A stretch of DNA of 64,000 nt from an uncultured Candidatus Saccharibacteria bacterium. Its GTDB lineage: Bacteria; Patescibacteriota; UBA1384; XYA2-FULL-43-10; 1-14-0-10-43-13. The notes under the pieces are model-generated. The model ran no database searches, was not told where the DNA came from, and worked only from the letters and a program-made list of their open reading frames with translations. The stretch is from contig CAZIYE010000001.1 of the NCBI GenBank assembly GCA_964543385.1, positions 356,933 to 420,932 on the forward strand, read 5' to 3'. This document shows, piece by piece, positions 12,181 through 64,000 of this stretch. The translations under genes and the position numbers were made by a program. Every line of letters begins with the position of its first letter. The stretch's first letter is position 1.

Positions 12181-12223
12181 AAATAAAACAACTGAGTCGG
12201 TCCGCACAATGGCGAACCGACTC
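12181..12223 (-). terminator. intrinsic terminator of the pyrF-pyrE island operon
   Basis: Minus strand: hairpin gagtcggt-tcgccattgtgcgg-accgactc followed by AGTTGTTTTATTT. Confidence 0.6.
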
Positions 12224-12261
12224 GAGTTTGTCCGTATAGGACTATCACCCCCCTTCGATAT

Positions 12262-13011
12262 TTACGCAGCGTTCATGGCCGCTTCCAGAATATCCCATTC
12301 CAGTTTGGGATGGCGCACAACCTGACCGGCAGCAATCAGCGCTGCGACCGTCGGATCATCCTGATGATATTCTTCTGTCGGCCGGAAAATGTCGCATAGT
12401 ATGGGAATCGGCGGTTTGCCGGGCCGACAAAATTCGTGTGTTTCCGGCCACGCCCGATCAACAGCGCAGATCACATATTGGACGATTCCGCCACCCTCTT
12501 CGATGAGATCTGCCATCTTACCGGTGCTTTTGCCATTATTGAAAACGTCTTCTCCGATGGCATAGCGTTTACCGGGGATAATTGGGTGACGACCTGCTTT
12601 GAACATCGAGGCTTTACGGGTGCTCTCCGTTTCCAGCGCAGTCACTATTTCATCCGGAAACCCGTATTCAATCTGGTCGTAGCCACGGTGCCAGCAGATA
12701 TGCGCGATCGCCTCTGAGAGAGTGAGACCGCCCATTGGTGAACCGTAGATCACCTCAGGAAATCCGTTCGCGTGCAGCAGGCCGAACATCATCTCGGCAA
12801 ACTGTACATTATCCGCCGTCCCTTCGACCATAGCGTAATTGTAGTACGCCGCGCCAACCCAGTGATGGATTTCATCATATTTGGCCGAATACTGTACCAA
12901 CGGCCCAACGATTTTACCATCAGGGGTTGACTTCGATTGATAGGACCCGCGGCGTTGCCGCATAAGCAGCAGCAAGCGATCTTGCTCCTGCTGATTTGGT
13001 GAATATAACAC
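12262..13011 (-). CDS. pyrE: orotate phosphoribosyltransferase-like type I PRTase (high-GC island)
   Basis: PRPP-binding motif GKRYAIGEDVFNNGKSTG aligned with the flexible-loop region (…TESTRKASMFKAG…), as in OPRTases. Likely start is GTG at 13011, preceded by AGGAGG and placed 7 nt after the pyrF TAG stop (translational coupling). The longest ORF in the track (to 13101) overlaps pyrF. Confidence 0.6.
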   Translation of the reverse strand: MLYSPNQQEQDRLLLLMRQRRGSYQSKSTPDGKIVGPLVQYSAKYDEIHHWVGAAYYNYAMVEGTADNVQFAEMMFGLLHANGFPEVIYGSPMGGLTLSEAIAHICWHRGYDQIEYGFPDEIVTALETESTRKASMFKAGRHPIIPGKRYAIGEDVFNNGKSTGKMADLIEEGGGIVQYVICAVDRAWPETHEFCRPGKPPIPILCDIFRPTEEYHQDDPTVAALIAAGQVVRHPKLEWDILEAAMNAA

Positions 13012-13024
13012 GATATCGCCTCCT

Positions 13025-13852
13025 CTAGGCGGCTTCTCTGGCCGCCAGACCTTCTTCGATCTCACGCACAGCGCGCGCCACAACACCAGCGATGTCACCA
13101 TCGGCCGGCTTGGTCAGCGGACGCCCCATTACCAGGAAGTCGGAGCCATCGGCGATTGCGATTGCAGGGGTGACGACCTGCTTCTGGTCCTGAACATCTC
13201 CATCGGCGAAGCGGATGCCCGGCGTCACGACCAGGAAATCCCGACCGCAAGCGGCCTTGATCGCCTTGACATGCTGAGCCGAGGCTACAACACCATCGAG
13301 ACCCGCTTCCTTAGCGAGAAGCGCAAGCTGTACTACTACATACTGCACGGCTGCTTTCTCGTTTTCGAAATTGATCCCGTCGGGGCTCTTGTTCATAAGC
13401 CCGAGCTGAAAGAGGTTCGCGTAGTCGAGGCTCGTCAACACAGTGACGCCGATGACGAGTGGCCGCATTGAGAGGCCAAGCGCCACGGCTTCGGCTTCGG
13501 CGGCTTCACGTGCCGCTTTCATCGCCTCAAGCCCGGAAAGACAGTGCATGTTGATCATGTGCACGCCCAGACGGACAAGAGACTTGACCGCGCCCACCAC
13601 CGTGTTCGGAATGTCGGAAAGCTTACCGTCAAGGAAGACGGCCCCACCGATCTCGATAATGTGGCGAATGACTGAGGAGAACTCGCCGGTCATAATGAGT
13701 TCCAGGCCAACCTTAAAGAACTTGACGCCCTTCGCGGCCATCTGGTCCACCATGGCGATTGCCTTTGCCGGCGAATCGAAGTCCAACGGGATGATGATCA
13801 TCCCTGCTACGCTTGCGCATAGCTGAAGCAACCATTGACGTGTTGTCTTCAC
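13025..13852 (-). CDS. pyrF: orotidine-5'-phosphate decarboxylase (high-GC island)
   Basis: OMPDC signature VFLDGKLSDIPNTV (…D-x-K-x2-D-I-P-N-T…); GTG start with GGAGAAGGAGAAGG SD; strongly G+C-rich compared with flanking genes. Confidence 0.75.
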   Translation of the reverse strand: MKTTRQWLLQLCASVAGMIIIPLDFDSPAKAIAMVDQMAAKGVKFFKVGLELIMTGEFSSVIRHIIEIGGAVFLDGKLSDIPNTVVGAVKSLVRLGVHMINMHCLSGLEAMKAAREAAEAEAVALGLSMRPLVIGVTVLTSLDYANLFQLGLMNKSPDGINFENEKAAVQYVVVQLALLAKEAGLDGVVASAQHVKAIKAACGRDFLVVTPGIRFADGDVQDQKQVVTPAIAIADGSDFLVMGRPLTKPADGDIAGVVARAVREIEEGLAAREAA

Positions 13853-14040
13853 TTAGATTACCTTCTCCTTCTCCATATCATTAGATACGGAACACAGCCC
13901 CGATCGAGTCGGGGTCAAGTTGTCGTTCGGTTGTTAACCGATATGGTACAAAAAAAGCTCCGCTATCTTCGAATCATAGCCAAGCCCTCTTATGGTAGTA
14001 ATATAGAGAAAAACTATATGGAAAGCAACAAATATGGTCC

Positions 14041-14075
14041 TATTAATGCGAAAGCGGTCCCCATACGGGGACCGC
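14041..14075. terminator. hairpin terminator downstream of cdsA, weakly bidirectional
   Basis: Perfect hairpin gcggtcccc-atac-ggggaccgc; minus strand is followed by TTTCGCATT. Confidence 0.45.
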
Positions 14076-14083
14076 TCTGCTAA

Positions 14084-14938
14084 TTAACCGACCAGGCTAA
14101 GGATGATATATGCAATTGGCGCTGCATATATCATACTATCGAGCCTGTCGAGTATCCCTCCATGACCGGGGAGAAGGTCACCGGAATCCTTTTTCTTGAA
14201 ATTCCTTTTCAAAAAAGATTCAACCAGGTCTCCGACCTGACCGAGGAGTCCGATAACTGGCCCAAGAAGGACCAGAAACGGGTTATGGAGAGTCATAGCG
14301 AATGCAATTGCAAATGCCAGTGCTGCCACAAAGCCAGCAACCGAACCACCGATGGTCTTCCCCGCGCTGACATCTGGGCAGAGCTTGGCGCTCTTTATCC
14401 GGCTACCGATCAGGTAAGCCGTAATGTCTATTGCCCAAATCGTAACCAGGAATACTAACAGTAGCACAGGCCCCTTGGACAAACTCAATCCCCCGATTTC
14501 AACATGTCCTGGAATAGACCTGATAGCGACTAAGAAGCTTGGCAGCACACTGACATAGACCGCAAACCTGAGAAGGTTCGTAGGTTCTAGGTAGAACTTT
14601 CTATCGAGAAGTTCTGATCCTAGAAAAATGACAGTGAACACAGCAAGCATACAGAGTGGCGCAGACCACAGACTATCAGCCAAAGCAACAGTGCTTAGCA
14701 TGAAAGTGGCGACAGCCATGAAAATCCATGGCAACTTTACAATTCCTTTTACTTCCATCAAGTCACAGTATTCGCTCGCCATGATGGCGATCAAAACAGC
14801 AACAATAATGGAGAATAACAGGTCGTTGCAAAAAAAGATGGCAACAACTGCTAGGGGTATCCCAATCACAGTTACTACCAATCTTTGCAGGAATTTTTTC
14901 ATATCCCTACCCCCGAAACAGCGTGCCACCCTGGTCAC
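14084..14938 (-). CDS. cdsA: phosphatidate cytidylyltransferase
   Basis: CdsA signature …KRNFKKKDSGDLLPGHGGILDRLDSMIY…; probable true start at 14902 (MKKFLQRL…). Confidence 0.85.
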   Translation of the reverse strand: MTRVARCFGGRDMKKFLQRLVVTVIGIPLAVVAIFFCNDLLFSIIVAVLIAIMASEYCDLMEVKGIVKLPWIFMAVATFMLSTVALADSLWSAPLCMLAVFTVIFLGSELLDRKFYLEPTNLLRFAVYVSVLPSFLVAIRSIPGHVEIGGLSLSKGPVLLLVFLVTIWAIDITAYLIGSRIKSAKLCPDVSAGKTIGGSVAGFVAALAFAIAFAMTLHNPFLVLLGPVIGLLGQVGDLVESFLKRNFKKKDSGDLLPGHGGILDRLDSMIYAAPIAYIILSLVG

Positions 14939-28954: not shown

Positions 28955-29029
<75 letters not shown>

Positions 29030-31570: not shown

Positions 31571-32077
31571 TTAATATTTGATTAGATTTCTCTGGTTTCC
31601 TGCCGAACACATCCTGTGTCGGCCGGAGATTTTCCCCAGACTCGTTGTCCGAAAGTCTGGTTTGGTTTTCTTGTCCATTGTCGTCGGATAGACCGTATAT
31701 ATCCAATAATAGGTTTTTCCGACTTTTCGAATTTCACTACCAGTAACTCGGCAGGCATTCGCTCCCCAGTAGTCGACAAGGAGTTGCGAATACTCCACGA
31801 TCAACTGAGCTTGAGTATGATCATCGTTATCAGGGATAAGGACATCCGCTCCATACTGGAGAGCGATAATCTTAGCCTTAGGCAAACGAATGATGCCACC
31901 GGCCAAGCGACTGACCGCCTCCTCACGAGACATAACTGCCAGGCTGACCTGACGGTCTGCTTTCTTGTGGAGGGAAACACGATGCCAGATAAACAAGCTG
32001 GCAAGCAATGTGAACCACACAAGACAGAGGATGAGAGACCATTTGAAACTCAATTTCACGGTGAGTACCCCTTTCAA
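31571..32077 (-). CDS. hypothetical membrane-anchored protein (GC-rich cassette)
   Basis: 168 aa; TTG (or GTG 7 codons in) start with GAGGAA/AAGGGG SD; N-terminal TM LILCLVWFTLLASLFIW; no recognised domain; G+C clearly above flanking DNA. Confidence 0.4.
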   Translation of the reverse strand: MKGVLTVKLSFKWSLILCLVWFTLLASLFIWHRVSLHKKADRQVSLAVMSREEAVSRLAGGIIRLPKAKIIALQYGADVLIPDNDDHTQAQLIVEYSQLLVDYWGANACRVTGSEIRKVGKTYYWIYTVYPTTMDKKTKPDFRTTSLGKISGRHRMCSAGNQRNLIKY

Positions 32078-32168: not shown

Positions 32169-32197
32169 TTGAAATTAAACAAAATATTATTTATAAT
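32169..32197 (+). promoter_or_regulatory. near-consensus sigma70 promoter (TTGAAA-17-TATAAT)
   Basis: Exact -35/-10 hexamers with 17-nt spacing; drives the structured RNA at 32204-32357. Confidence 0.5.
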
Positions 32198-32203
32198 CTT
32201 TAG

Positions 32204-32357
32204 CAAGCTGAGCAGTCCGCCAATAAACCATGACTAGAAAAGCACTCCTATATCTTGCGAAAGCAAGTGCGGACTGAGGTTCATTTAAATGTGGTTTTTA
32301 AGCCGATGCTTGCGTACCGTGCGGTATCCTCTTCTGGATTGCCGCACCGTTTTTGTT
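32204..32357 (+). ncRNA. candidate ~150-nt structured small RNA / leader element ending in an intrinsic terminator
   Basis: 8-bp helix cagtccgc(32213-20)/gcggactg(32269-76); GNRA hairpin cttgc-GAAA-gcaag (32254-67); terminator gtgcgg(t)atcc-tcttct-ggat(tg)ccgcac + TTTTTGTT (32319-32357). No ORF with an SD. Confidence 0.4.
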
Positions 32358-36327: not shown

Positions 36328-37239
36328 ATGGCTTCAACACAAGAATTCAGACGCCGAATCAAATCGGTCAATAATACAAAACAAATTACCAAAGCAATGG
36401 AAATGATCGCCTCTATTAAGATGCAAAAGGCAACTCGTTTTGCTGCAATGGCTAGAAGCTACACCCAAAACGCTTGGAATATGCTTTTAAAGCTTGCAAC
36501 AATTGTACTGCCAGAGGCACATCCCCTATTGAATCCAAGAGAAGTAAGGAGAACAGCGGTAGTCTTATTGACTTCAGATCGTGGACTTTGTGGTTCATAT
36601 AATTCGGAAGTACTGAAAAAATTTGTTGCATTCGAAAAGGAACAATGCGCCTGCAATCAAAAAAGTTGCGGTGAATTTGTAGGAAATTGTGATGTAATTA
36701 CTATCGGTAAAAAGGGCGCGGAATTCACCAAAAGATATAAAACAGGCAAACTAATCGCTGAATTCCCCGGCTTCGAAAATAATATTCAGGCAGAAGATGT
36801 TATGCCTATCTCCAAAATGACAAGCGATGAATACCTAGCCGGCAAATATGACCGAGTAGTAGTTATTTACTCTCATTTTGAATCATCACTAAAACAAATA
36901 CCGGTCGTCAAACAGATTTTACCTATATCAAACGACCATATTGATAAACCAGAAATATGGACACAAACCGATGAGGCTGAGACCGAATACAAATTTGAGC
37001 CAAGCCCAGATGACGTTCTAGAAGGAATACTTAAGCAATTTCTGAGAGTTCAAATATACGGCGCAATCCTAGAGGCCAATGCCTCAGAACATTCTGCCCG
37101 TATGGTAGCAATGAAAAATGCTACTGACAGCGCTGGTGATCTGATAGATGAGCTCAAACTGGTATACAACGCTGTCCGCCAAGGCTCAATCACTCGTGAA
37201 ATTGCTGAGATATCTGGCGCAGCGGAAGCAATGAAGTAG
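36328..37239 (+). CDS. atpG: F1 ATP synthase subunit gamma
   Basis: 303 aa; N-terminal …RRRIKSVNNTKQITKAMEMIASIKMQKA… and C-terminal …NATDSAGDLIDELKLVYNAVRQGSITREIAEI…. Confidence 0.85.
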   Translation: MASTQEFRRRIKSVNNTKQITKAMEMIASIKMQKATRFAAMARSYTQNAWNMLLKLATIVLPEAHPLLNPREVRRTAVVLLTSDRGLCGSYNSEVLKKFVAFEKEQCACNQKSCGEFVGNCDVITIGKKGAEFTKRYKTGKLIAEFPGFENNIQAEDVMPISKMTSDEYLAGKYDRVVVIYSHFESSLKQIPVVKQILPISNDHIDKPEIWTQTDEAETEYKFEPSPDDVLEGILKQFLRVQIYGAILEANASEHSARMVAMKNATDSAGDLIDELKLVYNAVRQGSITREIAEISGAAEAMK

Positions 37240-37447
37240 CACATTTAAAAAAACCAGGCCGCCACTTACTTGATTTCGGCGGCAGCCTGGAGATGGGAAG
37301 GCGGGACCATTCCTCGTCTTCATCGGAGACGAACTCGTGTTCGTCGCTACGGCCGAGGGGCCGTGTCTGTTGCCCTTGCTTCGGGCAATCGGCGGTATCC
37401 ATGCAGGAGCACGGACACAGATCATCATCGCGGCCACAGTCGGCCAT
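37190..37447 (-). CDS. hypothetical Cys-rich small protein (GC-rich cassette antisense between atpG and atpD)
   Basis: AAGGGGG SD 8 nt upstream of ATG at 37447; MADCGRDDDLCPCSCMDTADCPKQ… then acidic stretch; ORF reads through the terminator hairpin into antisense atpG, so its true 3' end is uncertain. Could instead be a non-coding RNA. Confidence 0.3.
   Translation of the reverse strand: MADCGRDDDLCPCSCMDTADCPKQGQQTRPLGRSDEHEFVSDEDEEWSRLPISRLPPKSSKWRPGFFKCATSLLPLRQISQQFHE
37246..37290 (-). terminator. intrinsic terminator on minus strand just after atpG stop
   Basis: Minus strand: ccaggctgccgcc-gaaatcaagtaagt-ggcggcctgg followed by TTTTTTTT. Confidence 0.6.
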
Positions 37448-37471
37448 AGTGGTGTCCCCCTTTTCGAAACG

Positions 37472-37500
37472 TTGTCCGGAAACCGGATGGGAGATACAAT
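37472..37500 (+). promoter_or_regulatory. near-consensus sigma70 promoter restarting transcription before atpD (TTGTCC-17-TACAAT)
   Basis: Hexamers and spacing read directly; followed by AAGGAG SD and the atpD ATG at 37536. Confidence 0.5.
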
Positions 37501-37535
37501 AAAATAAATTAGTTAATATGTCAATAAGGAGATAG

Positions 37536-38900: not shown

Positions 38901-38904
38901 GAAT

Positions 38905-38950
38905 CCCATCCAAAGTGTATCGGCCGAAACCGATCGACCCTAAGGATGGG
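38905..38950. other. nested hairpin immediately after atpD stop
   Basis: cccatcc-…atcgg-ccgaaa-ccgat…-ggatggg; on the minus strand it follows the stop of the small membrane ORF and precedes TTCCTATTTTCC. Confidence 0.4.
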
Positions 38951-38976
38951 CGGAATTGTATGGCTGTTCCCCTTCA

Positions 38977-39186
38977 TTACTTCTTCTTTGGCCCTTTTGG
39001 CGGAACCGAAGGAAGATGTATCTTCGAGAAGCATCCAAGCCGTGCCATGATGATGATAACCATCACTATTACGGCTACTGCCGGAGTAATTGCGCAGGCA
39101 AGTCCCATCTTTAGATAGATCAAGATAGCCTCCGCTATCGCGGCCATGCCAAGCGTAATCAGCAAGTCTCTGAGAATCGGATCCAT
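38977..39186 (-). CDS. hypothetical 69-aa two-TM membrane peptide (GC-rich cassette antisense between atpD and atpC)
   Basis: GGGGGGTGA SD 6 nt upstream of ATG at 39186; MDPILRDLLITLGMAAIAEAILIYLKMGLACAITPAVAVIVMVIIIMA… basic C-terminus PKGPKKK. Confidence 0.4.
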   Translation of the reverse strand: MDPILRDLLITLGMAAIAEAILIYLKMGLACAITPAVAVIVMVIIIMARLGCFSKIHLPSVPPKGPKKK

Positions 39187-39231
39187 GGTTTCACCCCCCA
39201 TTCGTTTCCAGTAAAGTAGTGTCAACCTTGC

Positions 39232-47420: not shown

Positions 47421-47453
47421 AATCGTAATATTTATCAGTTTATACACCAATTT

Positions 47454-48218: not shown

Positions 48219-48219
48219 A

Positions 48220-53301: not shown

Positions 53302-53407
53302 CTTACTTTTTGGATTTTACGGCCGGATAAGATAATTATTGCAATATCAAAACAAAGCAGTTAAAATATACTTAACTAAAATATAAATATCTCAAAAGGA
53401 GGGATAT

Positions 53408-54037
53408 ATGGACTTTGGATGGAATAAACCTGCCAGTCAGGATCAAAATAATAGTACTCAAGTTACAACAGATGATGCAAAAACTCCAGTAGTTGATGAT
53501 ACACCAGCTGCTACTCCTGCAGCAACGCCAGCTTCTTCGTGGGATTTACCTGGAGATAATAATAAACAAGACACTCAAGGCGGGATGACTTCCTCGGAGG
53601 AAGACTTAGACTTTTCGGCTAGTAAATCAGATGATTCTTTTGGCAACGATTTCACGGTCAACCCATCTACTAATACGAAGCAGGTGGAGGATAATATACC
53701 AGAGGAAAAAGACGAAAAAGAAGCCTCCCCAGAAGATGATCAAGCAGAGACACCTTCTATAGAAAAGACTGAAGAGGACCAAATAGAAGCGGTAAAAACA
53801 GAGATAGAGGAAAAATCAGAACCGACAGAAGATGATATTCAAAATGCGGCCCCAACAAATGGCGGCAAATCTCTGACAGAGTTGGAGAATGATATATTGG
53901 GTCAAAAAAACAAAGTTGATAAAGATTTGGCTGATCTGCAAACAAAAGCTACCAAGCTCGAGGAGCTTCTCTCAAAGATTAGAAAAATGCAAGATGAGGA
54001 AAAGAATCTTATACAAGAAATATCAAGCGCCCTATAG
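53408..54037 (+). CDS. hypothetical acidic low-complexity protein with C-terminal coiled coil
   Basis: 209 aa; AAGGAGGG SD; Asp/Glu/Thr/Pro-rich; C-terminal …LADLQTKATKLEELLSKIRKMQDEEKNLIQEI…. Confidence 0.5.
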   Translation: MDFGWNKPASQDQNNSTQVTTDDAKTPVVDDTPAATPAATPASSWDLPGDNNKQDTQGGMTSSEEDLDFSASKSDDSFGNDFTVNPSTNTKQVEDNIPEEKDEKEASPEDDQAETPSIEKTEEDQIEAVKTEIEEKSEPTEDDIQNAAPTNGGKSLTELENDILGQKNKVDKDLADLQTKATKLEELLSKIRKMQDEEKNLIQEISSAL

Positions 54038-54051
54038 TAAGTTGTTTCTAT

Positions 54052-54080
54052 AAAAAAGAGCTGATCATCAGCTCTTTTTT
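54052..54080. terminator. bidirectional intrinsic terminator
   Basis: AAAAAAGAGCTGATCATCAGCTCTTTTTT. Confidence 0.65.
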
Positions 54081-54612
54081 ATATCGTTATTAGGTCCTTG
54101 ATTTTATTGAAAATTAAATTACCTATCCCTTTTACCTCCTTGACCTGATCTATGGTTTTAAACCCGCTATGACTTTGACGATATTCAACGATCTTTTTAG
54201 CATATGCCGGACCGATACCGGGCAGCGTATCAAGTTCCCCTTCAGACGCAGTATTGATATTTATTTTACCAGGGATTTGTTTTACCACAGCTTTATGGGA
54301 TTCTGGAGTAAAGTTGGTTATGCCCGCTACTTTTCCGCCATCATCACTAGATGATGATACCTCCTTACTTTCAGAAATAAGCTTCTCAACTTCAACCGGC
54401 AAAGCAGACAAGTCTTCCTTTCTATCTTGCTCTAGAACAAAGAGCCTATTCTCGGCCAGACTCACTCTTTTTTTGATTTCAGGCATTAAGTAGTTTTCTC
54501 GCCAAAGTAAGAAAATCGAACTAGCTATAATTATGCAAAGTAATAATGAGCCAATCAAATACTTATAATGTTCCACTATTGCACTAAAGTTATTAATTTT
54601 GGAATTTTCCAT
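54079..54612 (-). CDS. comEA: competence protein ComEA (HhH DNA-binding)
   Basis: N-terminal TM; C-terminal …NINTASEGELDTLPGIGPAYAKKIVEYRQ…FKTIDQVKEVKGIG…. Confidence 0.7.
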   Translation of the reverse strand: MENSKINNFSAIVEHYKYLIGSLLLCIIIASSIFLLWRENYLMPEIKKRVSLAENRLFVLEQDRKEDLSALPVEVEKLISESKEVSSSSDDGGKVAGITNFTPESHKAVVKQIPGKININTASEGELDTLPGIGPAYAKKIVEYRQSHSGFKTIDQVKEVKGIGNLIFNKIKDLITI

Positions 54613-54635
54613 TTAAATAAAGTTTTATCTAGCTC

Positions 54636-56684: not shown

Positions 56685-56702
56685 TAGCCAGAAAATTGAT
56701 AG

Positions 56703-56912
56703 TTATCTTTTCATCGTTATTGATGCAGATGCTACCATTATAACTCCCAAAACAAGAAAAGCACCACCAATCCATAACAGAATACGGAATATGTCTGCAC
56801 TTGGATCGACGTAAGTACTGTCAGCACCAACGCTACCAACACCCAACGATGTTGCGACAGCAATAATACCGAACAGAAAAGCGAAGAAACCAAACGTAAA
56901 TACTTTTTTCAT
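56703..56912 (-). CDS. hypothetical 69-aa two-TM peptide downstream of macB-like gene
   Basis: MKKVFTFGFFAFLFGIIAVA… signal-like TM, second TM near C-terminus. Confidence 0.4.
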   Translation of the reverse strand: MKKVFTFGFFAFLFGIIAVATSLGVGSVGADSTYVDPSADIFRILLWIGGAFLVLGVIMVASASITMKR

Positions 56913-56921
56913 AATTTTCTC

Positions 56922-58874
56922 CTATTCATATCTTAAGGCTTCTAACGGCGATAATTTGGCTGCTCTTCTTGCGGGGTATAAGCCAGCCAAAAGCGAAACT
57001 AATACAGTTAAGACTACCATCTCGATGGCGAAAAAGGTAGGGGTTATAAATATTTGCATTGATCCCGGAATGTCGCTCATTTTCATCAATAGATTTACTA
57101 TGAAATTTACAAATTCTCCAAAGAAATAAGTAGAAAGAACTCCGGCAAGTGAACCATAAAGCCCAAACATAATCACTTCATATTCAAAAATACGTTTTAT
57201 ATCGATATTTGTTGCTCCGATAGCCTTCATTATTCCAACTTCGTGTGTTCTCTCCAGCAGAGATATAGTCATGATGTTTACTATACCAATAAGTGCAACT
57301 ATCAAGGCGACACCACCAATTACTCCAAGAACAATTTGCATGATAAGAAATACTTTGTCAACTTGCTTTATAAGATCAATAACTGAAGATGTTGTAAAAC
57401 CAGCTCTTTCGATATTATCCCTGACTGATTCAACCTTAGATCGATCTGACGCTTTAACCTTGACGCTATTATATTTGCCTACTCCTGTTATTTTTTTCGC
57501 CGATTCCAGAGATATGATAGCCGTACTTAGTAATTCATCACCATAAACACCAACAATTTTTTCATCCAATTCAACACTTTTTAGATCAGATATTTTACCA
57601 GATTCCTCCGAGACAACAAGCATTGTTAATTTGATGTTCTTACCTACTGCAGTTGAAGGATCTTTTATATCAAAATTCTTTAAAAGACCTTTAGATACTA
57701 CCACTCCTGACTTGTCAGTAAATTTACTACCAGAGATTAAAATAACTCCTTCAAACTCTAGCGCATTAGGAGCAATCCCCTGCACAATTATCTGAGAGTT
57801 AGAGCTGTCTATGTTCGCCTTAGAGGCAACAGTTACAGATGGACTTACAATAGCAACATTTGATATTTTTTTAAGTTTATCTACTGCTTTATCATCAAGG
57901 TTTTCTATCGAATTCTTGCTCAAAGATACATTAATAGTCACCAATGCATCGAGAGAAGCCAGCTGGCTTGAAGTTATTTTCTGAAGACCAACCCCAAGAG
58001 AAACCAACGTAACTATTGATCCGACGCCCATTGCAACACCAAGAGTTGTTAAAAAACTCCTCAGTTTATTGCTAAAAAAATGAATTCTAGAAAAACGAAG
58101 GGTTTCTAGAATCTTCATTGATCCTTTTTTATTGGAAACATAGTATTTAGGAGTCTTGCTGTCTTCAGAATAGGAGGTGCTTTTATTATTACTATCAACC
58201 CTTACCATCTCGCCATCACGCATATATAATATTCTGTCGCCAAATTTAAGAAAATCAGGATTATGAGTGACTAGAACAATCGTCCTACCCCACTTCTTAT
58301 TGATCTTGCATATTAGATCCATTATCTCATTCCCTGTCGGTATATCTAGATTTCCAGTAGGTTCGTCAATCAGGAGAATCCCTGGATTTGCCGACAATGA
58401 TCTAGCAATTGCAATTCGTTGTTGTTGCCCTCCGGACATCTCCGAGGGCCTATGGTCTGCTCTATCACCAAGTCCAACAACAGCAAGAAGCTCTTCTGCT
58501 CTGGCATGAGCCTCTTTTCTATTAACTCCAGACAAGATCAAAGGCATTGCTACATTGTCTCGCGCAGAAAGTGTCGGAACAAGATTAAATTGCTGAAATA
58601 CCATACCGACCCTAGTTCGGCGATATTCAGATAACTTGTTCTCTTTTAGATCAAATATATTAGTCCCCTTATAGAGAACTTTACCCAATGAAGGATAATC
58701 CAAACCGCCCAGAAGACTTAAAAGTGTGCTCTTGCCACAACCAGATGGCCCAAAAACAACCACAAATTCACCAGCATTTATGTCAAAAGTAGCACCTTTA
58801 AGTGCCTGTACCTCGTTTTCTCCAACGAAAAACGACTTCTGTAGATTATCAACTCTGATTACAGGCTCTTTCAT
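56922..58874 (-). CDS. MacB-type fused ABC ATPase-FtsX permease
   Basis: 650 aa; Walker A GPSGCGKST, LSGGQQQRIAIARSL, ILLIDEPTGNLD, followed by 4-TM FtsX domain. Confidence 0.8.
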   Translation of the reverse strand: MKEPVIRVDNLQKSFFVGENEVQALKGATFDINAGEFVVVFGPSGCGKSTLLSLLGGLDYPSLGKVLYKGTNIFDLKENKLSEYRRTRVGMVFQQFNLVPTLSARDNVAMPLILSGVNRKEAHARAEELLAVVGLGDRADHRPSEMSGGQQQRIAIARSLSANPGILLIDEPTGNLDIPTGNEIMDLICKINKKWGRTIVLVTHNPDFLKFGDRILYMRDGEMVRVDSNNKSTSYSEDSKTPKYYVSNKKGSMKILETLRFSRIHFFSNKLRSFLTTLGVAMGVGSIVTLVSLGVGLQKITSSQLASLDALVTINVSLSKNSIENLDDKAVDKLKKISNVAIVSPSVTVASKANIDSSNSQIIVQGIAPNALEFEGVILISGSKFTDKSGVVVSKGLLKNFDIKDPSTAVGKNIKLTMLVVSEESGKISDLKSVELDEKIVGVYGDELLSTAIISLESAKKITGVGKYNSVKVKASDRSKVESVRDNIERAGFTTSSVIDLIKQVDKVFLIMQIVLGVIGGVALIVALIGIVNIMTISLLERTHEVGIMKAIGATNIDIKRIFEYEVIMFGLYGSLAGVLSTYFFGEFVNFIVNLLMKMSDIPGSMQIFITPTFFAIEMVVLTVLVSLLAGLYPARRAAKLSPLEALRYE

Positions 58875-59143
58875 CTTTTCTCTATCTCTTCCTCTAATTC
58901 CTCTACCTCGCGCTCCACCTCCAACAACTTAGTCATTGACTCAAACGCAGTGATAGTTAGCAACACGGTGATCACAGAAATTGTAATGAATACTCCTGCT
59001 ACGATTGCCTTCTTTTGAAATGAAGATTCTGGATAATAGAAGAATAGTACGATGCCCAATACTAGTAAAAAGATAGCGACGATTATCCCAACCAACAAGA
59101 GTAGATAAGAACCCATTTTGATCAATTTTTTGTTGTTTGCCAT
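58871..59143 (-). CDS. hypothetical 90-aa membrane protein translationally coupled to macB-like gene
   Basis: 2 TM then Glu-rich coiled-coil tail (…LEVEREVEELEEEIEKR); 4-nt overlap ATGA with downstream gene. Confidence 0.4.
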   Translation of the reverse strand: MANNKKLIKMGSYLLLLVGIIVAIFLLVLGIVLFFYYPESSFQKKAIVAGVFITISVITVLLTITAFESMTKLLEVEREVEELEEEIEKR

Positions 59144-59318
59144 TTTAAAAATTTAGATTAGATAATAGCCAAAAAGGTGCCAACGACAAATCATTGCACA
59201 CATAAGAATATAAAGCCTAGTACAGTCATACCCCTCGCTTTCCACAGTATTTATAGCTTGATCCAAGCTACCGTTTATCTATAAATAAATTATAACAATT
59301 GGAAAGCAATTATACAAA

Positions 59319-60473
59319 CTAATCAACTCTGTCGATTATGCCGCCGCCGACAACTTCATCGCCATGATAGAAGACAGCACTTTGCCCGGGAGTGACGGCT
59401 CTTTGTGATACATCCAGAATGACCTTGAACTTTCCTTCCTGAATCTCATTGATTTGGCAGGTGACCTCTCTGGCCTTATACCGAATTCTAACCTTTAAAT
59501 CTCCATAGTCTGATCTGGGACCAGTCCAATATGTATTTACAATTTCAAACTCTTTTTTATATAGATCTTCATCAGCGCCGACAATTAGCTCATTTTTGCG
59601 TAAATCAAATCCAATAGCATAAAGAGGCTTCTTATTTTCACCTTTATTCATAATTTTTAATTCTTGATTGACATCCTTACGTTGGCCGATTGTGTAGTTA
59701 ACCAACCCGTTATGAATACCTACTGTAAAACCACTCTTGTCAACAATTTTACCGGATTTAAAATATGACTCGTCTAGATGTCTTTTTAGAAATTCACGAT
59801 AATCATTCCCTGCTACAAAACAAATTTCTTGGCTATCTTTTTTCTTATAAGTAAGCAGACCTTCTTTCTCTGCAATTGCCCTAGTGTCTTCCTTGCTCAT
59901 TTCTGAAAGTGGAAATACAACTTTAGAGAGTTTATCCTGACCAAGCTGATACAGAAAATAAGATTGATCCTTAGCTTTATCAAAGCCCTTAGAGAGATGA
60001 TAAAATTCTTCATCATCTTGGGTTATTTTTGCATAATGTCCAGTCGCAAGCTTATCGCATCCAACTTTTTCCGCAAAATCTAAAAGCCATCCAAACTTTA
60101 TTTTTTGATTGCATAGAATGCATGGATTTGGGGTTCTTAGGTTTTTATATTCATCAATAAAATAATCAACGATCTCTTTTTTAAACACCTTCCGAGCGTC
60201 TACTACATAAAACGTTATTCCTAATTGAGTAGCAACTTTGCGTGCATCCATCAAGGCTCGTTCATCGCAGCAAGCATTCTCCGATGTACCGCAAGGATCG
60301 TGCCAAAGCTTCATAAAAAAGCCGACAACATCATATCCTTGTTGTTTTAGAAGCAACGCTGAAACAGAGGAATCAACTCCTCCGGACATGCCCACCGCAA
60401 CTTTTATTTTCGATTTGTCCAATATAATTCCATTCTGATATAGAACTTGATGATACCCTTGATCTGTTACCAA
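59319..60473 (-). CDS. mnmA: tRNA-specific 2-thiouridylase
   Basis: PP-loop …KIKVAVGMSGGVDSSV…; …CNQKIKFGWLLDFA…; TTG start in track, true start possibly slightly downstream. Confidence 0.85.
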   Translation of the reverse strand: MVTDQGYHQVLYQNGIILDKSKIKVAVGMSGGVDSSVSALLLKQQGYDVVGFFMKLWHDPCGTSENACCDERALMDARKVATQLGITFYVVDARKVFKKEIVDYFIDEYKNLRTPNPCILCNQKIKFGWLLDFAEKVGCDKLATGHYAKITQDDEEFYHLSKGFDKAKDQSYFLYQLGQDKLSKVVFPLSEMSKEDTRAIAEKEGLLTYKKKDSQEICFVAGNDYREFLKRHLDESYFKSGKIVDKSGFTVGIHNGLVNYTIGQRKDVNQELKIMNKGENKKPLYAIGFDLRKNELIVGADEDLYKKEFEIVNTYWTGPRSDYGDLKVRIRYKAREVTCQINEIQEGKFKVILDVSQRAVTPGQSAVFYHGDEVVGGGIIDRVD

Positions 60474-60487
60474 ATAAATGGTATAAA
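60459..60487 (+). promoter_or_regulatory. sigma70-like promoter (TTGATC-17-TATAAA) for the Cys-rich peptide gene
   Basis: Hexamers and 17-nt spacer read directly; overlaps the mnmA start region on the opposite strand. Confidence 0.35.
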
Positions 60488-60502
60488 TATGCTTATCATT
60501 TT

Positions 60503-60528
60503 CGATATCCTAACGGATATCGTTTTTG
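60503..60528 (+). promoter_or_regulatory. leader hairpin plus U-tract (attenuator-like) between the promoter and the SD
   Basis: Perfect 8-bp palindrome cgatatcc-taac-ggatatcg followed by TTTTTGG. Confidence 0.4.
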
Positions 60529-60554
60529 GTAAAACCCCTATTGGAGGATGTTCG

Positions 60555-60722
60555 ATGATTAACCCCTGCCTGCGCGCCCAATTGCGGCGCGACGTCGCCC
60601 GTCGCTGGAAGGCGACCACGGAAGCACTCCGTAACTCTGAATGCCAGAACTGCGTTCTCGCAGACAGCGGATCGTGCGCTCCGGCCAACTGTCCGGGCCA
60701 TCAGGCCCAATCGCGGCACTAG
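60555..60722 (+). CDS. 55-aa Cys-rich peptide (GC-rich cassette)
   Basis: GGAGG SD 7 nt upstream of ATG; MINPCLRAQLRRDVARRWKATTEALRNSECQNCVLADSGSCAPANCPGHQAQSRH (CxxC-x7-C-x4-C at the C-terminus; basic N-terminus). Confidence 0.45.
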   Translation: MINPCLRAQLRRDVARRWKATTEALRNSECQNCVLADSGSCAPANCPGHQAQSRH

Positions 60723-60734
60723 CCGCACTGCGTC

Positions 60735-60770
60735 CCGCCACTCCCCTCAAAGGAGTGGCGGTTCTTTTTA
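60735..60770 (+). terminator. strong intrinsic terminator of the peptide gene, abutting the folD stop
   Basis: ccgccactcc-cctcaaa-ggagtggcgg followed by TTCTTTTTA. Confidence 0.7.
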
Positions 60771-61610
60771 TCCAACAACATTTTTAAACAACATTGCAAT
60801 AGTTACTGGTCCTATCCCACCAGGGACAGGAGTATAATAACGTGACTTTTCGTAAGCTTCTGGATCAATATCGCCAATAAAATCACCATTTTCCTCTGCC
60901 GTTCCAGCGTCGATTAGAACAACGCCGTCTTTGACCATATTTTCTTTTATTAATTTTGGGCTACCCGTAGCAGAAATTATAATGTCAGCATCCTTGATTG
61001 TTTCTACAAGATCATTCTTGCCTTTGTTGACCACCCTTAGATCAGCTTCTTTAAAATCCTCAATCAGACATTTCTGAAGTGGTGAGCCGACAAGAAAACC
61101 AAGACCTACTTGAGCAATCTTAGTTTTTTCATTTATTCTGGCTCCAGAACGTTTTATAGCTTCAAGAATTGCTAAAACGACCGGCGGTTTAAATTTAGAG
61201 TCCAACCCTGCACAGAAGCGAAGACCGTCAATGTCCTTGTCAGGACTGATTTTTGCAATCAGCTTTTCTCGGCTGAAAACTTTAGGAAGAGGAATTTGGA
61301 TCATAATACCATCAGTCTCTGGATCATTATTCAAATAGTTTATAGCTTCAATAATTTCTTCCTCTGAATCCTTCTCACCAAATGTATATAGGCAAAACTG
61401 GATACCAGTTTTCTCAGCCATTTTCTTTTTTAGCTCAACATACTGACGACAAATAGGATTATCTCCAATCAAAAAAACAGCCATTGTTGGCTTTCTCTTC
61501 ATCGTTACTATTTTATTTGCAAGATCACTCAAGATTTCGTCTCGGATCTTTTTACCATCAAAATAATTTTCCATACGAACTATATTAGCAGAAAACACTC
61601 GACTTGTCAT
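60768..61610 (-). CDS. folD: bifunctional methylene-THF dehydrogenase/cyclohydrolase
   Basis: …DGKKIRDEILSDL…; …GDNPICRQYVELKKK…; …VVNKGKNDLVETIKDADIIISATGSPKLI…; probable true start ATG at 61574. Confidence 0.85.
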   Translation of the reverse strand: MTSRVFSANIVRMENYFDGKKIRDEILSDLANKIVTMKRKPTMAVFLIGDNPICRQYVELKKKMAEKTGIQFCLYTFGEKDSEEEIIEAINYLNNDPETDGIMIQIPLPKVFSREKLIAKISPDKDIDGLRFCAGLDSKFKPPVVLAILEAIKRSGARINEKTKIAQVGLGFLVGSPLQKCLIEDFKEADLRVVNKGKNDLVETIKDADIIISATGSPKLIKENMVKDGVVLIDAGTAEENGDFIGDIDPEAYEKSRYYTPVPGGIGPVTIAMLFKNVVG

Positions 61611-61622
61611 CAGTATTAGCAG

Positions 61623-62015
61623 CTATTTATTTTTCTTGCCTTCATAATCAGCGATAGCCTTTTGCAGAGCTTCAGCCGAAAGAATCGAACAGTGATATTT
61701 TTGTTTCGGCAAAATACCAAGAGCTTTATTGATGTCATCTCTAGTCATTTTCTTGACTTCCTTAATAGTCGCTCCTTTAGCAAGCTCTGTCATCATACTC
61801 GAAGCAGCAATAGCTGCTGCACAACCAAGCGTCTTGAACTTAACATCCTCGATATAATCAATGCCGGCCTCATTCTTGGCTACCTTAATATAAACATGCA
61901 TAATATCACCACACTTCATATTTCCAACTTGACCGACACCATCAGCATTCTCAATCTCCCCCACATTGCGTGGATTATAGAAATGATCTAATGCTTCTTT
62001 TGTATACTCTTCCAT
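61623..62015 (-). CDS. iscU: Fe-S cluster scaffold IscU/NifU-like
   Basis: …GNMKCGDIMHVYIKV…, …FKTLGCAAAIAASSMMTE… (three conserved Cys). Confidence 0.8.
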   Translation of the reverse strand: MEEYTKEALDHFYNPRNVGEIENADGVGQVGNMKCGDIMHVYIKVAKNEAGIDYIEDVKFKTLGCAAAIAASSMMTELAKGATIKEVKKMTRDDINKALGILPKQKYHCSILSAEALQKAIADYEGKKNK

Positions 62016-62037
62016 ATATATCCTTGAATTATAGCCT

Positions 62038-63261
62038 CTACTTAAATGGGCTCATCTTTCTTAATTTATCAATAATTCCTGGCAAAACTTCAATAACTTT
62101 ATCAACTTCCTCATCGGTTGTATAACGACTTAGAGAAAATCTGATTGAACCATGTGCCTTCTCTGGCACAATACCCATAGCCGATAAGACATGACTAGGA
62201 TCTAATGATCTTGAAGTACAGGCAGACCCTGATGAAACAGCAATCCCTAAGAAATCCAGATTCAACACGATGGCCTCTCCCTCAGCATTTATAAAACTGA
62301 AATTTACAATATGAGGTGCATGCCTCTCTTTGCTACCGTTGAATATTATATCGGGTATAGATTTTTCCAGAGAAGTAACTAATTTATCTCTAAGCTTTAT
62401 AAGCCTTTTTGCTTCATGGCTAAACTTTAGCTCTGGCAGACCATTATTGATCAAATTATCAGACTCAGATCTCTCTTTAAGGATAAGATCAAGCGCTTTT
62501 GAAAAACCTGCTATTCCAGAAATGTTCTCCGTTCCTGCTCTTTTGCGTAGTTCCTGACTGCCACCAGTGATTTGAGATTTTATTTTAATATTATTTCGAA
62601 GATACAAAGCACCGATCCCCTTCGGTCCATGAAGTTTGTGAGCCGTGAATGTTAGCAAATCGACTTTCAAATACTCAGGTGAAATCTCAAAAAATTCTGC
62701 AGCTTGGACAGCATCAGTATGAAAATAGATCCGACTCTCTTCGTCACGATTTATATTTTCTTTTTCAAGCATGAGACCAATCTCCCTGATAGGAGAAATT
62801 ACGCCGGTCTCATTATTAACATAGATTATTGAAACTAACGTTGTATTGTCTTTTATAGCTTCTCGGACTGAATCAGCTGAAATAATCCCATTATTATCAG
62901 GTTTGATATAAGTAGCTTCGACTTTACCCTCTTTTTCAAGATCTTGTATTGTATGAAGCACAGCATGATGCTCGACCGCACTTGTAATGATATGGGCTTT
63001 CTTTCCACTTTCCACTATTCCCCTGATCGCTAGATTATCTGATTCGGATCCACCAGAAGTAAAAATTATCTCCTCAGGCTCACAGCCGGCAAAGAAGCTA
63101 ACGAATCGGCGCCCATCATCTATTATTTTCCTCGCCTCCTGACCGACAGAATGAATTGATGAAGGATTGCCAAAATATTTCGAATTTACATCGTTTATTG
63201 TCTGAACCACCTCTTTTGCGACTTGAGTCGTCGCAGCGTTGTCTAAATATATTCTATCCAT
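62038..63261 (-). CDS. iscS: cysteine desulfurase IscS/NifS
   Basis: 407 aa; PLP lysine TFTAHKLHGPKGIGALY; active-site …SSGSACTS…. Confidence 0.9.
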   Translation of the reverse strand: MDRIYLDNAATTQVAKEVVQTINDVNSKYFGNPSSIHSVGQEARKIIDDGRRFVSFFAGCEPEEIIFTSGGSESDNLAIRGIVESGKKAHIITSAVEHHAVLHTIQDLEKEGKVEATYIKPDNNGIISADSVREAIKDNTTLVSIIYVNNETGVISPIREIGLMLEKENINRDEESRIYFHTDAVQAAEFFEISPEYLKVDLLTFTAHKLHGPKGIGALYLRNNIKIKSQITGGSQELRKRAGTENISGIAGFSKALDLILKERSESDNLINNGLPELKFSHEAKRLIKLRDKLVTSLEKSIPDIIFNGSKERHAPHIVNFSFINAEGEAIVLNLDFLGIAVSSGSACTSRSLDPSHVLSAMGIVPEKAHGSIRFSLSRYTTDEEVDKVIEVLPGIIDKLRKMSPFK

Positions 63262-63284
63262 AAAAACTCTATGATTTAATCAAC

Positions 63285-63494
63285 CTACTCATTAATCTTT
63301 TTAGCTATTTTTCTTAAATCCTGCAAACAGGCTTTGCAGCCAGAACCAGAGATTAAATTTTCAAATTCCTCTTTTGAAACGAGATAAGCAACCGACTTTG
63401 AATACCTATTAACTTCATAAATTTCCCCTGCTTCAACTTCCTTAATAATTTTCGAAAGGTGATTTTGTAATTCGTTTGTAGTAATTTTTTTCAT
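63285..63494 (-). CDS. Phd/YefM-fold small DNA-binding protein with C-terminal CxxC, in IscR-like position upstream of iscS
   Basis: MKKITTNELQNHLSKIIKEVEAGEIYEVNRYSKSVAYLVSKEEFENL… matches the Phd/YefM antitoxin N-domain; tail …SGSGCKACLQDLRK…; no toxin gene follows, and iscS starts 23 nt downstream. Confidence 0.55.
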   Translation of the reverse strand: MKKITTNELQNHLSKIIKEVEAGEIYEVNRYSKSVAYLVSKEEFENLISGSGCKACLQDLRKIAKKINE

Positions 63495-63510
63495 ATATGT
63501 TTATGGTTAT

Positions 63511-63557
63511 GTAATATAACAAGTAATATAACAAGTAATATAACAAGTAATATAACA
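63511..63557. repeat. 12-nt tandem repeat GTAATATAACAA x3.9
   Basis: Read directly; begins 17 nt upstream of the Phd/YefM-like gene start. On the minus strand it is TTGTTATATTAC x4 and contains -35-like TTGTTA hexamers. Confidence 0.9.
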
Positions 63558-63602
63558 TTTAAGGAATTGCCTGTCAATTAGTAAACATAAAACGAAAACG
63601 AG

Positions 63603-63630
63603 CCCTGGTACATCATGTACACAGGGCCCG
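63603..63630 (-). terminator. intrinsic terminator of the truncated high-GC gene
   Basis: Minus strand: ccctgtgtaca-tga-tgtac(c)aggg followed by CTCGTTTTCGTTTTATG. Confidence 0.6.
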
Positions 63631-63661
63631 CTCGGATTTTTGACCTGAGCGCGAACGCCCG

Positions 63662-64000
63662 GGTCATCTCCCACTTCCTTTGTTCAGCTCCACCAGCGGT
63701 CCGATGACCACCTTCTGGAGCATGATCCTACGATTCTCGGGGTTCCGCAGCCTCCAGCTGTCTCCTCCCAGGAATCGGCGCTGCTCAGCAGCAGACAGCC
63801 CCTTCCAGCGTGGATCCTTCGCCTGAGCGGCGATCTCAGCATCGCTGTTTGGGACGCCGCACTCGAGTAGCACCTTGTTCTCGATCGTGTTATAACCACC
63901 GAGAACATCGAAGGTCTTTGCTAAAGTGCAGTTGACTGGCTTGCCGAACCGTTTCCGGCCATAGCCCTGATCAAGCAGAACATTCTCGATCAGTCCGGCC
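63662..64000 (-). CDS. C-terminal part of a high-GC gene of unknown function (continues beyond window end)
   Basis: Open frame from the window edge: …AGLIENVLLDQGYGRKRFGKPVNCTLAKTFDVLGGYNTIENKVLLECGVPNSDAEIAAQAKDPRWKGLSAAEQRRFLGGDSWRLRNPENRRIMLQKVVIGPLVELNKGSGR*; strongly G+C-rich. Confidence 0.4.

Follow-up and report, generated by a model that had tools for sequence, protein, structure and literature searches.

Many hotspots of horizontal gene transfer (HGT) in bacterial chromosomes lack mobile elements, and the genes they contain turn over through recombination at the core genes that flank them, particularly in transformable species (PMC5635113). Here, we study a set of short G+C-rich segments scattered between the housekeeping genes of a 64-kb stretch of DNA (hereafter, the window: contig CAZIYE010000001.1 of assembly GCA_964543385.1, positions 356,933 to 420,932, deposited as an uncultured Candidatus Saccharibacteria bacterium). 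We label them A (the pyrF operon at 12.2-13.9 kb), Z (an open reading frame, or ORF, encoding a zinc ribbon), and B, C, D, E, and F (the later segments). A preliminary description of the window had regarded six of them as a coherent stream of imports, i.e. as one class of compact cassettes drawn from one or more high-GC sources. Our analysis points elsewhere: the segments are probably independent, ordinary horizontal acquisitions that took place at different times and became lodged in hotspot intervals between core genes, and not members of one element family. Horizontal transfer is supported; the existence of one coherent class of elements is not.

The mobile-element-free HGT hotspot is the closest described concept. 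The window has several traits in common with such hotspots (Oliveira, Touchon, Cury, and Rocha 2017, PMC5635113): its accessory genes are concentrated in a few intervals with conserved core genes on either side; what these intervals contain varies between related genomes, some of which have empty sites; there is no integrase, transposase, or recognisable mobile element; and the pattern is one expected in naturally transformable organisms. It differs from them in that the slots are tiny (0.2-1.7 kb, often with a single micro-ORF), that some of them lie within the atp operon with the insert in antisense, and that the genomes we compare are separated at the level of the genus or farther, instead of being strains of one species. 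In layout, the closest analogue is the phage moron. Morons, a concept of Hendrix and Juhala, are self-contained units of promoter, gene, and terminator, with atypical composition, found in the genomes of phages and prophages. Like them, our segments are units of atypical composition between two adjacent conserved genes, without recombinase or repeats. Unlike them, they lie in a cellular chromosome among housekeeping neighbours, in the absence of phage genes or viral matches, and their promoters are consensus matches only.

Three other types of systems are less similar. Integron cassettes, including those with isolated attC sites, also consist of a short ORF followed by an imperfect hairpin and have no mobility gene of their own. 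However, there is no integrase in the gene tables of the window, the units are scattered and mostly antisense instead of forming a co-oriented array, several of them have a Shine-Dalgarno (SD) motif and a possible promoter, and their hairpins come with T-runs and have no common sequence (no dedicated attC model was run). Miniature inverted-repeat transposable elements (MITEs) and other non-autonomous insertion elements are likewise short, intergenic, devoid of transposase, and hairpin-containing, but the units studied here are single-copy in the window, mutually unrelated, and without terminal inverted repeats or convincing target duplication; true MITE-like palindromes, present in one relative (L088), look quite unlike them. 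Finally, classical genomic islands and prophages exceed 10 kb, are adjacent to tRNA genes, and encode integrases or phage genes, whereas our segments measure 0.23-1.7 kb, have no tRNA neighbour, and give no phage signal.

Results

The segments are composition outliers in a genome of low G+C content

The best matches of AtpD in a search among 185,579 species genomes (72-76% identical) are metagenome-assembled genomes (MAGs) of Patescibacteria, or candidate phyla radiation (CPR), and the top named homologues of AtpG are from MAGs of Candidatus Berkelbacteria (70-73% identity). Judging from these protein similarities, we treat the host as a Berkelbacteria-like CPR bacterium. The window is made of densely packed housekeeping genes and has a G+C content of 39.2% (mean 0.39, standard deviation 0.063, in windows of 150 nt). 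Sliding windows show peaks of 0.62-0.66 at 12.2-13.9, 37.15-37.5, 60.5-60.8, and 63.6-64.0 kb, and weaker ones of 0.51-0.54 at 31.8-32.05 and 38.9-39.2 kb; peaks elsewhere correspond to tRNA genes or to Gly-rich stretches or tails of host proteins. The G+C content at third codon positions (GC3) is 0.340±0.037 in the host ORFs (n=56; maximum 0.44), and the flagged ORFs (Table 1) depart from it by z = 4.4-10.6 (binomial P from 4e-4 to 3e-32). Within the 64 kb, both measures confirm the discrete G+C-rich segments of the preliminary description: all six are strong GC3 outliers, and so are the zinc-ribbon ORF and cdsA, the latter being absent from the original list. The GC3 of the core genes of the window (0.34) is the lowest among all sampled relatives (0.40-0.58), and therefore nearly any gene arriving from the clade or from beyond it would look GC-rich here.

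Table 1. Positions in the window of the G+C-rich segments and of the features associated with them
Feature	Positions	Strand	Characteristics
Intrinsic terminator of the pyrF/PRTase-like operon	12194..12223	-	12-bp stem, 8 GC pairs, then T-rich tail
Divergent PRTase-like gene, 250 aa (A)	12262..13014	-	GTG start, GGAGG 8 nt upstream; GC 0.53, GC3 0.57
pyrF, orotidine-5'-phosphate decarboxylase (A)	13025..13852	-	PF00215, NF001273; GC 0.58, GC3 0.69
cdsA (CTP_transf_1)	14084..14938	-	Intermediate outlier, GC3 0.51
Z, zinc-ribbon ORF (CPKC...CSRC), 100 aa	20637..20939	+	GC3 0.50
B, 168-aa ORFan with N-terminal membrane anchor	31571..32077	-	GC3 0.53
Promoter-like site, ~150 nt, terminator hairpin 32319-32347, T-run	32169..32355	+	Consensus match 11/12
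C, antisense between atpG and atpD	37190..37524	-	Promoter-like site, SD, Cys-rich ORF, terminator; GC3 0.60
D, antisense between atpD and atpC	38901..39231	-	SD, hydrophobic ORF, terminator; GC3 0.56
E, antisense between folD and mnmA	60543..60771	+	SD, Cys-rich ORF, terminator; GC3 0.73
F, terminator (63585-63633; hairpin 63600-63633) and 3' part of GC-rich ORF	63585..64000	-	ORF runs off the window; GC3 0.67

pyrF was transferred long after the divergence of its carriers

Segment A is a minus-strand operon of two genes, pyrF and, 10 nt downstream, a gene resembling phosphoribosyltransferases (PRTase-like). The orotidine monophosphate decarboxylase domain of PyrF scores above the family cut-offs (PF00215: 146 bits for a cut-off of 27, E 2e-42; NF001273: 210.7 bits for a cut-off of 193). 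The protein has three close relatives, at 80-93% identity, and the next best matches reach at most 51%; the named ones among the latter are mostly from Armatimonadota MAGs, with single entries from Omnitrophota, Pacebacteria, Deltaproteobacteria, and Moorella. The PyrF with 93% identity is encoded on a contig of 48% GC (L084) that is syntenic with the window but comes from a distant relative, as seen from the protein identities of AlaRS (50-58%), FtsA (78%), and MreB (89%). There, the gene occupies the same interval as in the window, between alaS and ftsA. At the DNA level, the two pyrF are 88% identical over 857 bp, vs 70% for the adjacent ftsA, and the homology (window 13865-13009) is bounded exactly by the SD and the stop codon of pyrF. 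Among identical amino acids, third codon positions are identical in a fraction of 0.74 in pyrF, vs 0.38-0.42, i.e. saturation, in five core genes (ftsA, mreB, alaS, yceG, and mreC). This implies that pyrF was exchanged between the two lineages, or was taken twice from one source, long after they split. On these sequence comparisons, pyrF is a genuine case of horizontal transfer of a gene-sized module, which bears out, at least for this gene, the earlier proposal that the segments were imported from elsewhere. The alaS-ftsA island is a mosaic. In L084 the neighbours of pyrF are a PaaX_M-like gene, which stands at the position of cdsA, and a canonical pyrE encoding a clear orotate phosphoribosyltransferase, whereas in the window they are cdsA and the divergent PRTase-like gene.

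The PRTase-like gene is also found downstream of pyrF in a JGI contig and in Logan L085. Its product has weak matches to NCBIfam pyrE models, which are below cut-off (E=4.7e-6, residues 109-217 of the scanned 279-aa ORF at 12265-13101; 26 bits against TIGR01367, far under the cut-off of 150). Its alignment with the PyrE of L084 is limited to the phosphoribosyl pyrophosphate (PRPP)-loop region, it has no match in Pfam or in the PDB, and the confidence of a single-sequence AlphaFold2 model (pLDDT 34) is too low for the model to be of use. CPR bacteria are generally short of nucleotide synthesis, and presumably this organism is too; pyrF and the PRTase-like gene probably supply it with a step from orotate to uridine monophosphate. 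As for cdsA, whose 3' half is GC-richer (0.50 over 14084-14500), it may belong to the same variable island between alaS and ftsA, and could represent a further import, or one of earlier date.

The same slots are empty or hold unrelated small genes in relatives

We compared the intervals carrying the segments with the corresponding ones of relatives, all of which are of genus level or more distant (AtpG 67-88% identical). Three gene orders are conserved among them: atpA-G-D-C, phd-iscS-nifU-folD-mnmA, and alaS...ftsA. The spacers within these orders vary. In the window, atpA and atpG are separated by 16 nt, atpG and atpD by 296 nt (the site of C), and atpD and atpC by 331 nt (the site of D). 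Across the relatives and the window, the atpG-atpD spacer measures 57, 151, 296, or 679 nt and the atpD-atpC spacer 6-15, 115, 331, or 438 nt. In the genome with the most similar AtpG (L087, 88%), the former is an AT-rich stretch of 151 nt and the latter has 14 nt. In a contig whose AtpG is 85% identical (P0124), they have 57 and 15 nt, and the site of B, between a carbonic-anhydrase-like gene and atpI, has 181 nt. A third relative (L088, AtpG 82%) has antisense ORFs in three spacers of the operon: one of 132 aa with a zinc ribbon in atpA-atpG, one of 87 aa in atpG-atpD, and one of 75 aa, encoding a membrane protein, in atpD-atpC. The last of these units ends in a terminator hairpin (CCCATCC...GGATGGG) homologous to that of D; the similarity between the two proteins is not significant, and the homology rests on the DNA of the flanking hairpin. 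Three further genomes (L090, L092, and L093; AtpG 71-74%) have antisense zinc-ribbon ORFs of 67-99 aa between atpA and atpG.

The phd-iscS-nifU-folD-mnmA synteny is kept in ten metagenomic relatives, where the folD-mnmA spacer ranges from 0 nt (L099 and L101) to approximately 1080 nt. This slot contains antisense membrane ORFs of 111-120 aa in L094, L096, and L104 (GC3 0.59-0.70, vs 0.40-0.46 in their hosts), GIY-YIG genes in L096, L097, and L102, and coiled-coil ORFs in L098 and L100; none of these slot ORFs is related to E. Altogether, the slot genes of the relatives have GC3 values of 0.31-0.70, some under and some over those of their hosts. Since the same slots are either empty or filled with unrelated small genes in other genomes, they can be regarded as hotspots of gene turnover: atpA-G, atpG-D, atpD-C, carbonic anhydrase-atpI, folD-mnmA, and ftsA-alaS. 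The segments are thus not placed at random, and their distribution is the one known from HGT hotspots. There is also a weak sign of recombination beside the D slot: AtpC (39265-39684) is closer to its homologue in L088 (0.78 identity) than to that in L087 (0.72), though AtpG and AtpD place L087 nearer.

It could be argued that some of the segments are old residents whose high G+C content is intrinsically kept, by constraints on amino acids or structure or by biased repair, while the remainder of the genome drifted towards AT, and that their absence from relatives reflects loss. The D unit, which the window and L088 both carry and whose terminators are homologous, has a GC3 of 0.56 and 0.63, respectively, despite near-saturated synonymous sites between the two genomes, and the antisense membrane ORF family of the folD-mnmA slot is GC3-rich in three genomes. 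Yet, GC3 values of 0.6-0.73 concern silent positions, for which protein composition is no explanation, the synonymous divergence of pyrF is clearly unsaturated, and the tight spacers (0-57 nt) at the C, D, and B sites in the closest relatives would require several precise deletions. We thus find such long-term residence improbable; what probability it has concerns D above all.

Three side observations concern the slots of the relatives. The GIY-YIG nuclease-like genes (L096 11453-11827, L097 3859-4149, and L102 713-1003) have host-like G+C content and recall free-standing homing-endonuclease genes between conserved genes. The atpA-atpG and atpG-atpD spacers of L088 (6080-6190 and 8200-8310) contain a palindromic MITE-like element, CCTCACC..CTCTCCTT..AAGGAGAGG..GGTGAGG, to which nothing in the window is similar. 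L088 also has, after the stop codon of atpD (9699-9775), an AT-rich insert of 62 nt flanked by an imperfect 13-nt duplicate of the 3' end of this gene (GGTAGGGAAATAG / GGTAGGAAAATAAG), which could be the footprint left by the arrival of a D-type unit or of a small element.

The segments share neither sequence nor ends, and their signatures form no cluster

If the segments were one class of mobile cassettes, undescribed, lacking a recombinase of their own but moved by a common mechanism and drawn from a common high-GC source, one would look for traces of common descent or mobility. There are some resemblances. C, D, and E have the same antisense layout, with the terminator at the stop codon of the upstream gene; relatives, too, have small antisense ORFs in these slots, among them several for Cys-rich zinc ribbons or small membrane proteins and several that are GC3-rich; and pyrF acts like a module of the size of one gene, its homology reaching no farther than the gene boundaries. 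But comparisons of the segments with each other and with the window (blastn and blastn-short) return chance 9-12-mers only, and an all-vs-all comparison of their ORF products gives no significant pairwise similarity. A repeat scan reveals no terminal inverted repeats or target duplications at A, C, D, E, and F, and no long flanking repeats, the exception being a weak 11-nt direct repeat around the B ORF. The terminator hairpins are of the ordinary Rho-independent type and mutually unrelated, without a shared motif. In dinucleotide signature, only pyrF and the PRTase-like gene are beyond the 95th percentile of the host, the short segments being no farther out than the noise among equally long chunks of the host, in a test that is underpowered for pieces of 230-500 nt; the pairwise distances form no cluster, and D is far from the others. 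Sizes span 0.23-1.7 kb, contents are unrelated, the slot genes of relatives are found both under and over the GC3 of their hosts, and the antisense insertion of any gene would yield the same layout. A single mobile class thus has, in our opinion, little probability. The preliminary description had itself named unrelated signatures and matches as the observation that would speak against a single class, and this is what we find: the coherent stream dissolves into segments that have no DNA, ends, or proteins in common.

Other parts of that description fare differently. It rightly reported that no transposase, integrase, or long direct repeat flanks the segments: the gene tables covering the window contain no Pfam domain of integrases or transposases, and, apart from pyrF in L084, none of the segments recurs in the 64 kb or in 115 related loci (1.7 Mb). 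None of the segments adjoins one of the eight tRNA genes of the window. The proposed common architecture of SD, small ORF, and GC-rich terminator holds in part. SD-like motifs are found ahead of the ATG or GTG in C, D, and E as well as in both genes of segment A. Terminators are clear at E and at the end of the pyrF operon and can be read at C (37247-37290), at D (38905-38950), and at F (63585-63633), but B has none that we could find and the ORF of C overruns its own. This arrangement is, besides, the generic anatomy of any bacterial monocistronic gene. As to the promoters and restart promoters attributed to each unit, sites matching the consensus do exist, but they are no more frequent than in shuffled sequence.

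The searches for homologues were similarly unrewarding. B, C, D, E, F, and Z have no match in Pfam, NCBIfam, PHROGs, or PADLOC, and the alternative frames of C, D, E, and F have none in Pfam. There are no relatives of B, C, E, or F among viral contigs and no meaningful PHROG matches in the window, and plasmids give no blastn match for C, E, and F. No donor can be named for the segments, the only lead being an Armatimonadota-like origin of pyrF at about 50% identity; DNA derived from a host organism, e.g. an actinobacterial one, was considered as a donor and dropped, as no match supports it.

Independent assemblies contain five of the six segments

Over positions 881-22131, 28985-34639, 34611-48900, and 52201-63540, the window is matched with 100% identity by the Logan assemblies made from four sequencing runs. 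The junctions of A, Z, B, C, D, and E are all inside these regions, and those of B are also seen in Logan L121 and in an NCBI assembly. Because they are identical in independent assemblies, these segments are not assembly chimeras. Every Logan contig stops at approximately 63540, within a 12-nt unit, GTAATATAACAA, that is repeated four times in tandem (63511-63558) between the start of a phd-like gene and a minus-strand promoter-like site. The junction of F thus lies beyond the independently verified sequence. One might suspect here the fusion of high-GC reads to a CPR contig, by chimeric assembly or contamination: F starts directly after the repeat at which all independent contigs end, and it has no homologue among 5.8 billion cluster representatives. 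For the segments as a set, this is highly improbable. First, independent assemblies from four runs reproduce A, Z, B, C, D, and E, junctions included, with 100% identity. Second, pyrF and D are found at the same loci in other genomes. Third, each segment fits an intergenic gap exactly, with its signals correctly oriented. Fourth, even at F the order is functional, a terminator followed by a host promoter. Chimeric assembly is hence ruled out for A to E, i.e. for five of the six segments of the preliminary description, and a small possibility concerns F only.

The antisense micro-units may encode peptides or RNAs

C, D, and E all lie in antisense in a spacer between co-directional host genes, with an SD-like G-rich motif 4-7 nt ahead of the ATG and, directly next to the stop codon of the host gene upstream, a terminator hairpin. 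In C, the minus strand has a promoter-like site (37524-37496, 10/12 match, about 250 nt upstream of the terminator), the SD AAGGGGGA, a Cys-rich ORF of 85 codons (37447-37190), and a terminator made of a stem (37254-37290) and a T7 run (37247-37253). Because this ORF has no stop codon before the terminator, the stop being located 50 nt past it, within atpG, its coding status is doubtful, and C may be an RNA gene or a decayed ORF. On the plus strand, the hairpin of C is preceded by an A-run and not followed by a U-run, and there is a promoter-like site at 37472-37500, ahead of atpD. D has the SD GGGGGGTGA, a hydrophobic ORF of 69 aa (39186-38977), and a terminator hairpin (38905-38950) next to the stop codon of atpD. 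E has the SD GGAGGA (60543-60548) and a Cys-rich ORF of 55 aa (60555-60722); the T-run of its terminator (60735-60761) overlaps with the stop codon of folD. Between the start of mnmA and the SD of E, we also noticed a terminator-like hairpin, CGATATCCTAACGGATATCG, followed by TTTTTGG (60503-60522, plus strand), which could be an attenuator in the 5' region of E or the end of an antisense transcript.

These traits raise the question of whether the short units (C in the first place, perhaps also E) are genes for small structured or antisense RNAs instead of peptides, G+C-rich because of their structure, that may modulate the host operon by convergent transcription. The ORF of C running through a strong terminator with a promoter-like site upstream fits with this idea, as do the fold z-scores of C (-4.9) and E (-3.3). 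ORFs of 55-85 codons are, moreover, expected by chance at 57-64% GC (P of approximately 0.05-0.2 per frame, our own estimate from base composition), and none of C, D, and E was ever called as a gene in a collection of about 15 billion proteins. Against this, the z-scores include the terminator hairpin, and that of D is only -0.8. In Rfam, only the eight tRNAs of the window reach gathering scores, and scans by E-value of 31.4-39.4 kb and 60.3-64.0 kb give no family at E<=1 apart from one match at the level of chance (E 0.45). SD-like motifs are correctly spaced from the ATG, E and F have the coding-like pattern GC3>GC1>GC2, and the counterpart of D in L088 retains an open membrane-protein ORF. 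We consider it rather unlikely that these units are RNA genes, C being the main candidate. C and E may not code for protein at all. Two other identities were considered and dropped: type I toxin-antitoxin systems, as there is no sign of an antitoxin RNA partner, and precursors of ribosomally synthesised and post-translationally modified peptides, as there are no modifying enzymes nearby.

The remaining segments and their surroundings

Segment B is located between the carbonic-anhydrase-like gene and the atp operon. It has one real homologue among 1.84 billion representatives (P0242, 51% identity). A second match (P0243), inflated by repeats, is to a eukaryotic reverse-transcriptase array and was discarded, and the similarity of B to the ORF in the atpG-atpD spacer of L088 (E 0.007) is too weak to be accepted as homology. 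The B ORF and its SD are bracketed by a perfect 11-nt direct repeat, ACCAGAAAAAT (31561-31571 and 32111-32121), which could be a target duplication; by our estimate, about 0.2 such repeats are expected by chance in this AT-rich kilobase, which makes its significance weak. B and D are probably small envelope proteins. The segment delimited as 31.57-32.36 kb in the preliminary description also includes a unit on the plus strand (32169-32355), with the native atp promoter (TTGACG-17-TTAATT, 32421-32449) downstream of it. The unit has a fold z-score of only -2.2 and no match in Rfam, and may be a small RNA or a leader. The true start of the atpI-like gene is probably the ATG at 32483. Z occupies the convergent gap between a gene for an ABC (ATP-binding cassette) ATPase and one for an RNA recognition motif protein, and forms a singleton cluster in the 15-billion-protein collection.

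The ORF of F has its stop codon at 63664-63666 and more than 111 codons in the window. F is not found upstream of phd in relatives, where the content of this position differs from one genome to the other. A strong promoter-like site on the minus strand (63577-63549, 11/12 match, with TG) precedes the phd-like gene, which encodes a PhdYeFM-antitoxin-like protein of 69 aa (63285-63494, minus strand). With 61-80% identity, this gene heads iscS-nifU-folD-mnmA in at least six relatives (L094, L096, L097, L099, L100, and L104). No toxin partner is visible, and the protein resembles a domesticated regulator of the isc operon with an antitoxin fold.

Discussion

How could unrelated segments come to look alike? 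A probable scenario would involve 1) the entry of DNA by natural competence; 2) fixation by recombination, either homologous at the conserved flanks or illegitimate; 3) donors that would be relatives of higher G+C content (core GC3 0.40-0.58) or other bacteria, the host's own genes having drifted to low G+C; and 4) a survivorship filter, by which only non-polar insertions with their own SD and terminator would persist in a compact and operon-dense genome. Non-polar would here mean that the insert is antisense, that its one-way terminator faces the upstream gene and has a U-run solely on the insert's strand, and that the next host gene downstream has a promoter. The hairpin of C, with its A-run on the plus strand, and the promoter-like sites ahead of atpD and phd are examples. 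The window itself encodes a ComEA-like protein (HHH_3 domain, 54079-54612) and a ComM-like one (ChlI/Mg_chelatase domains, 29506-31044), which is consistent with a capacity for DNA uptake and recombination. Saccharibacteria are naturally competent, and the integration of flanked cassettes at intergenic sites has been shown experimentally (PMC10633639). Patescibacteria exchange genes mainly among themselves, and most of the transferred genes have no known function (PMC12455944).

Several points weigh against our interpretation of the segments as ordinary, independent acquisitions. Transfer is demonstrated for pyrF only; for B, C, D, E, and F, the arguments are composition and absence from relatives. 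The available relatives are distant, so that gains and losses are not confidently distinguishable. D is GC-rich in two lineages that are near synonymous saturation, which means that high G+C content is not always the mark of a recent arrival. The homology of pyrF stops at the gene borders and the flanking genes differ, and thus a double crossover in shared core flanks is insufficient as the sole mechanism; the sign of a recombination tract in the flanking core genes is a weak one, the discordance of AtpC. Finally, C looks non-coding or decayed, and the peptides of C, D, and E are predictions.

A bolder proposal can be made from the same slots. In Berkelbacteria-like CPR bacteria, a pool of micro-genes without recombinase may circulate and dock in the spacers of conserved operons (atp and isc-folD-mnmA); besides peptides of the Cys-rich or zinc-ribbon type, the pool would comprise very small membrane proteins and perhaps antisense RNAs. 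Being convergent to the upstream gene, these units may tune the host operon by antisense transcription. We see only a slim chance that this is correct. If it were, gene flow and the regulation of operons would take a form of their own across this clade, and the slots would not hold the random debris of HGT. To our knowledge, CPR bacteria have hardly been studied for their small proteins or antisense RNAs.

For the biology of these organisms, our results have three implications under the interpretation of the segments as independent acquisitions. First, the recent exchange of pyrF, a gene of nucleotide salvage, between distant ultra-small bacteria and at the same locus can be quantified. Second, antisense micro-ORFs are tolerated again and again between the ATP-synthase genes of this clade. 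Third, the GC mosaic of an AT-rich CPR genome needs no new mobile element: turnover at hotspots in a lineage that has drifted to low G+C content suffices.

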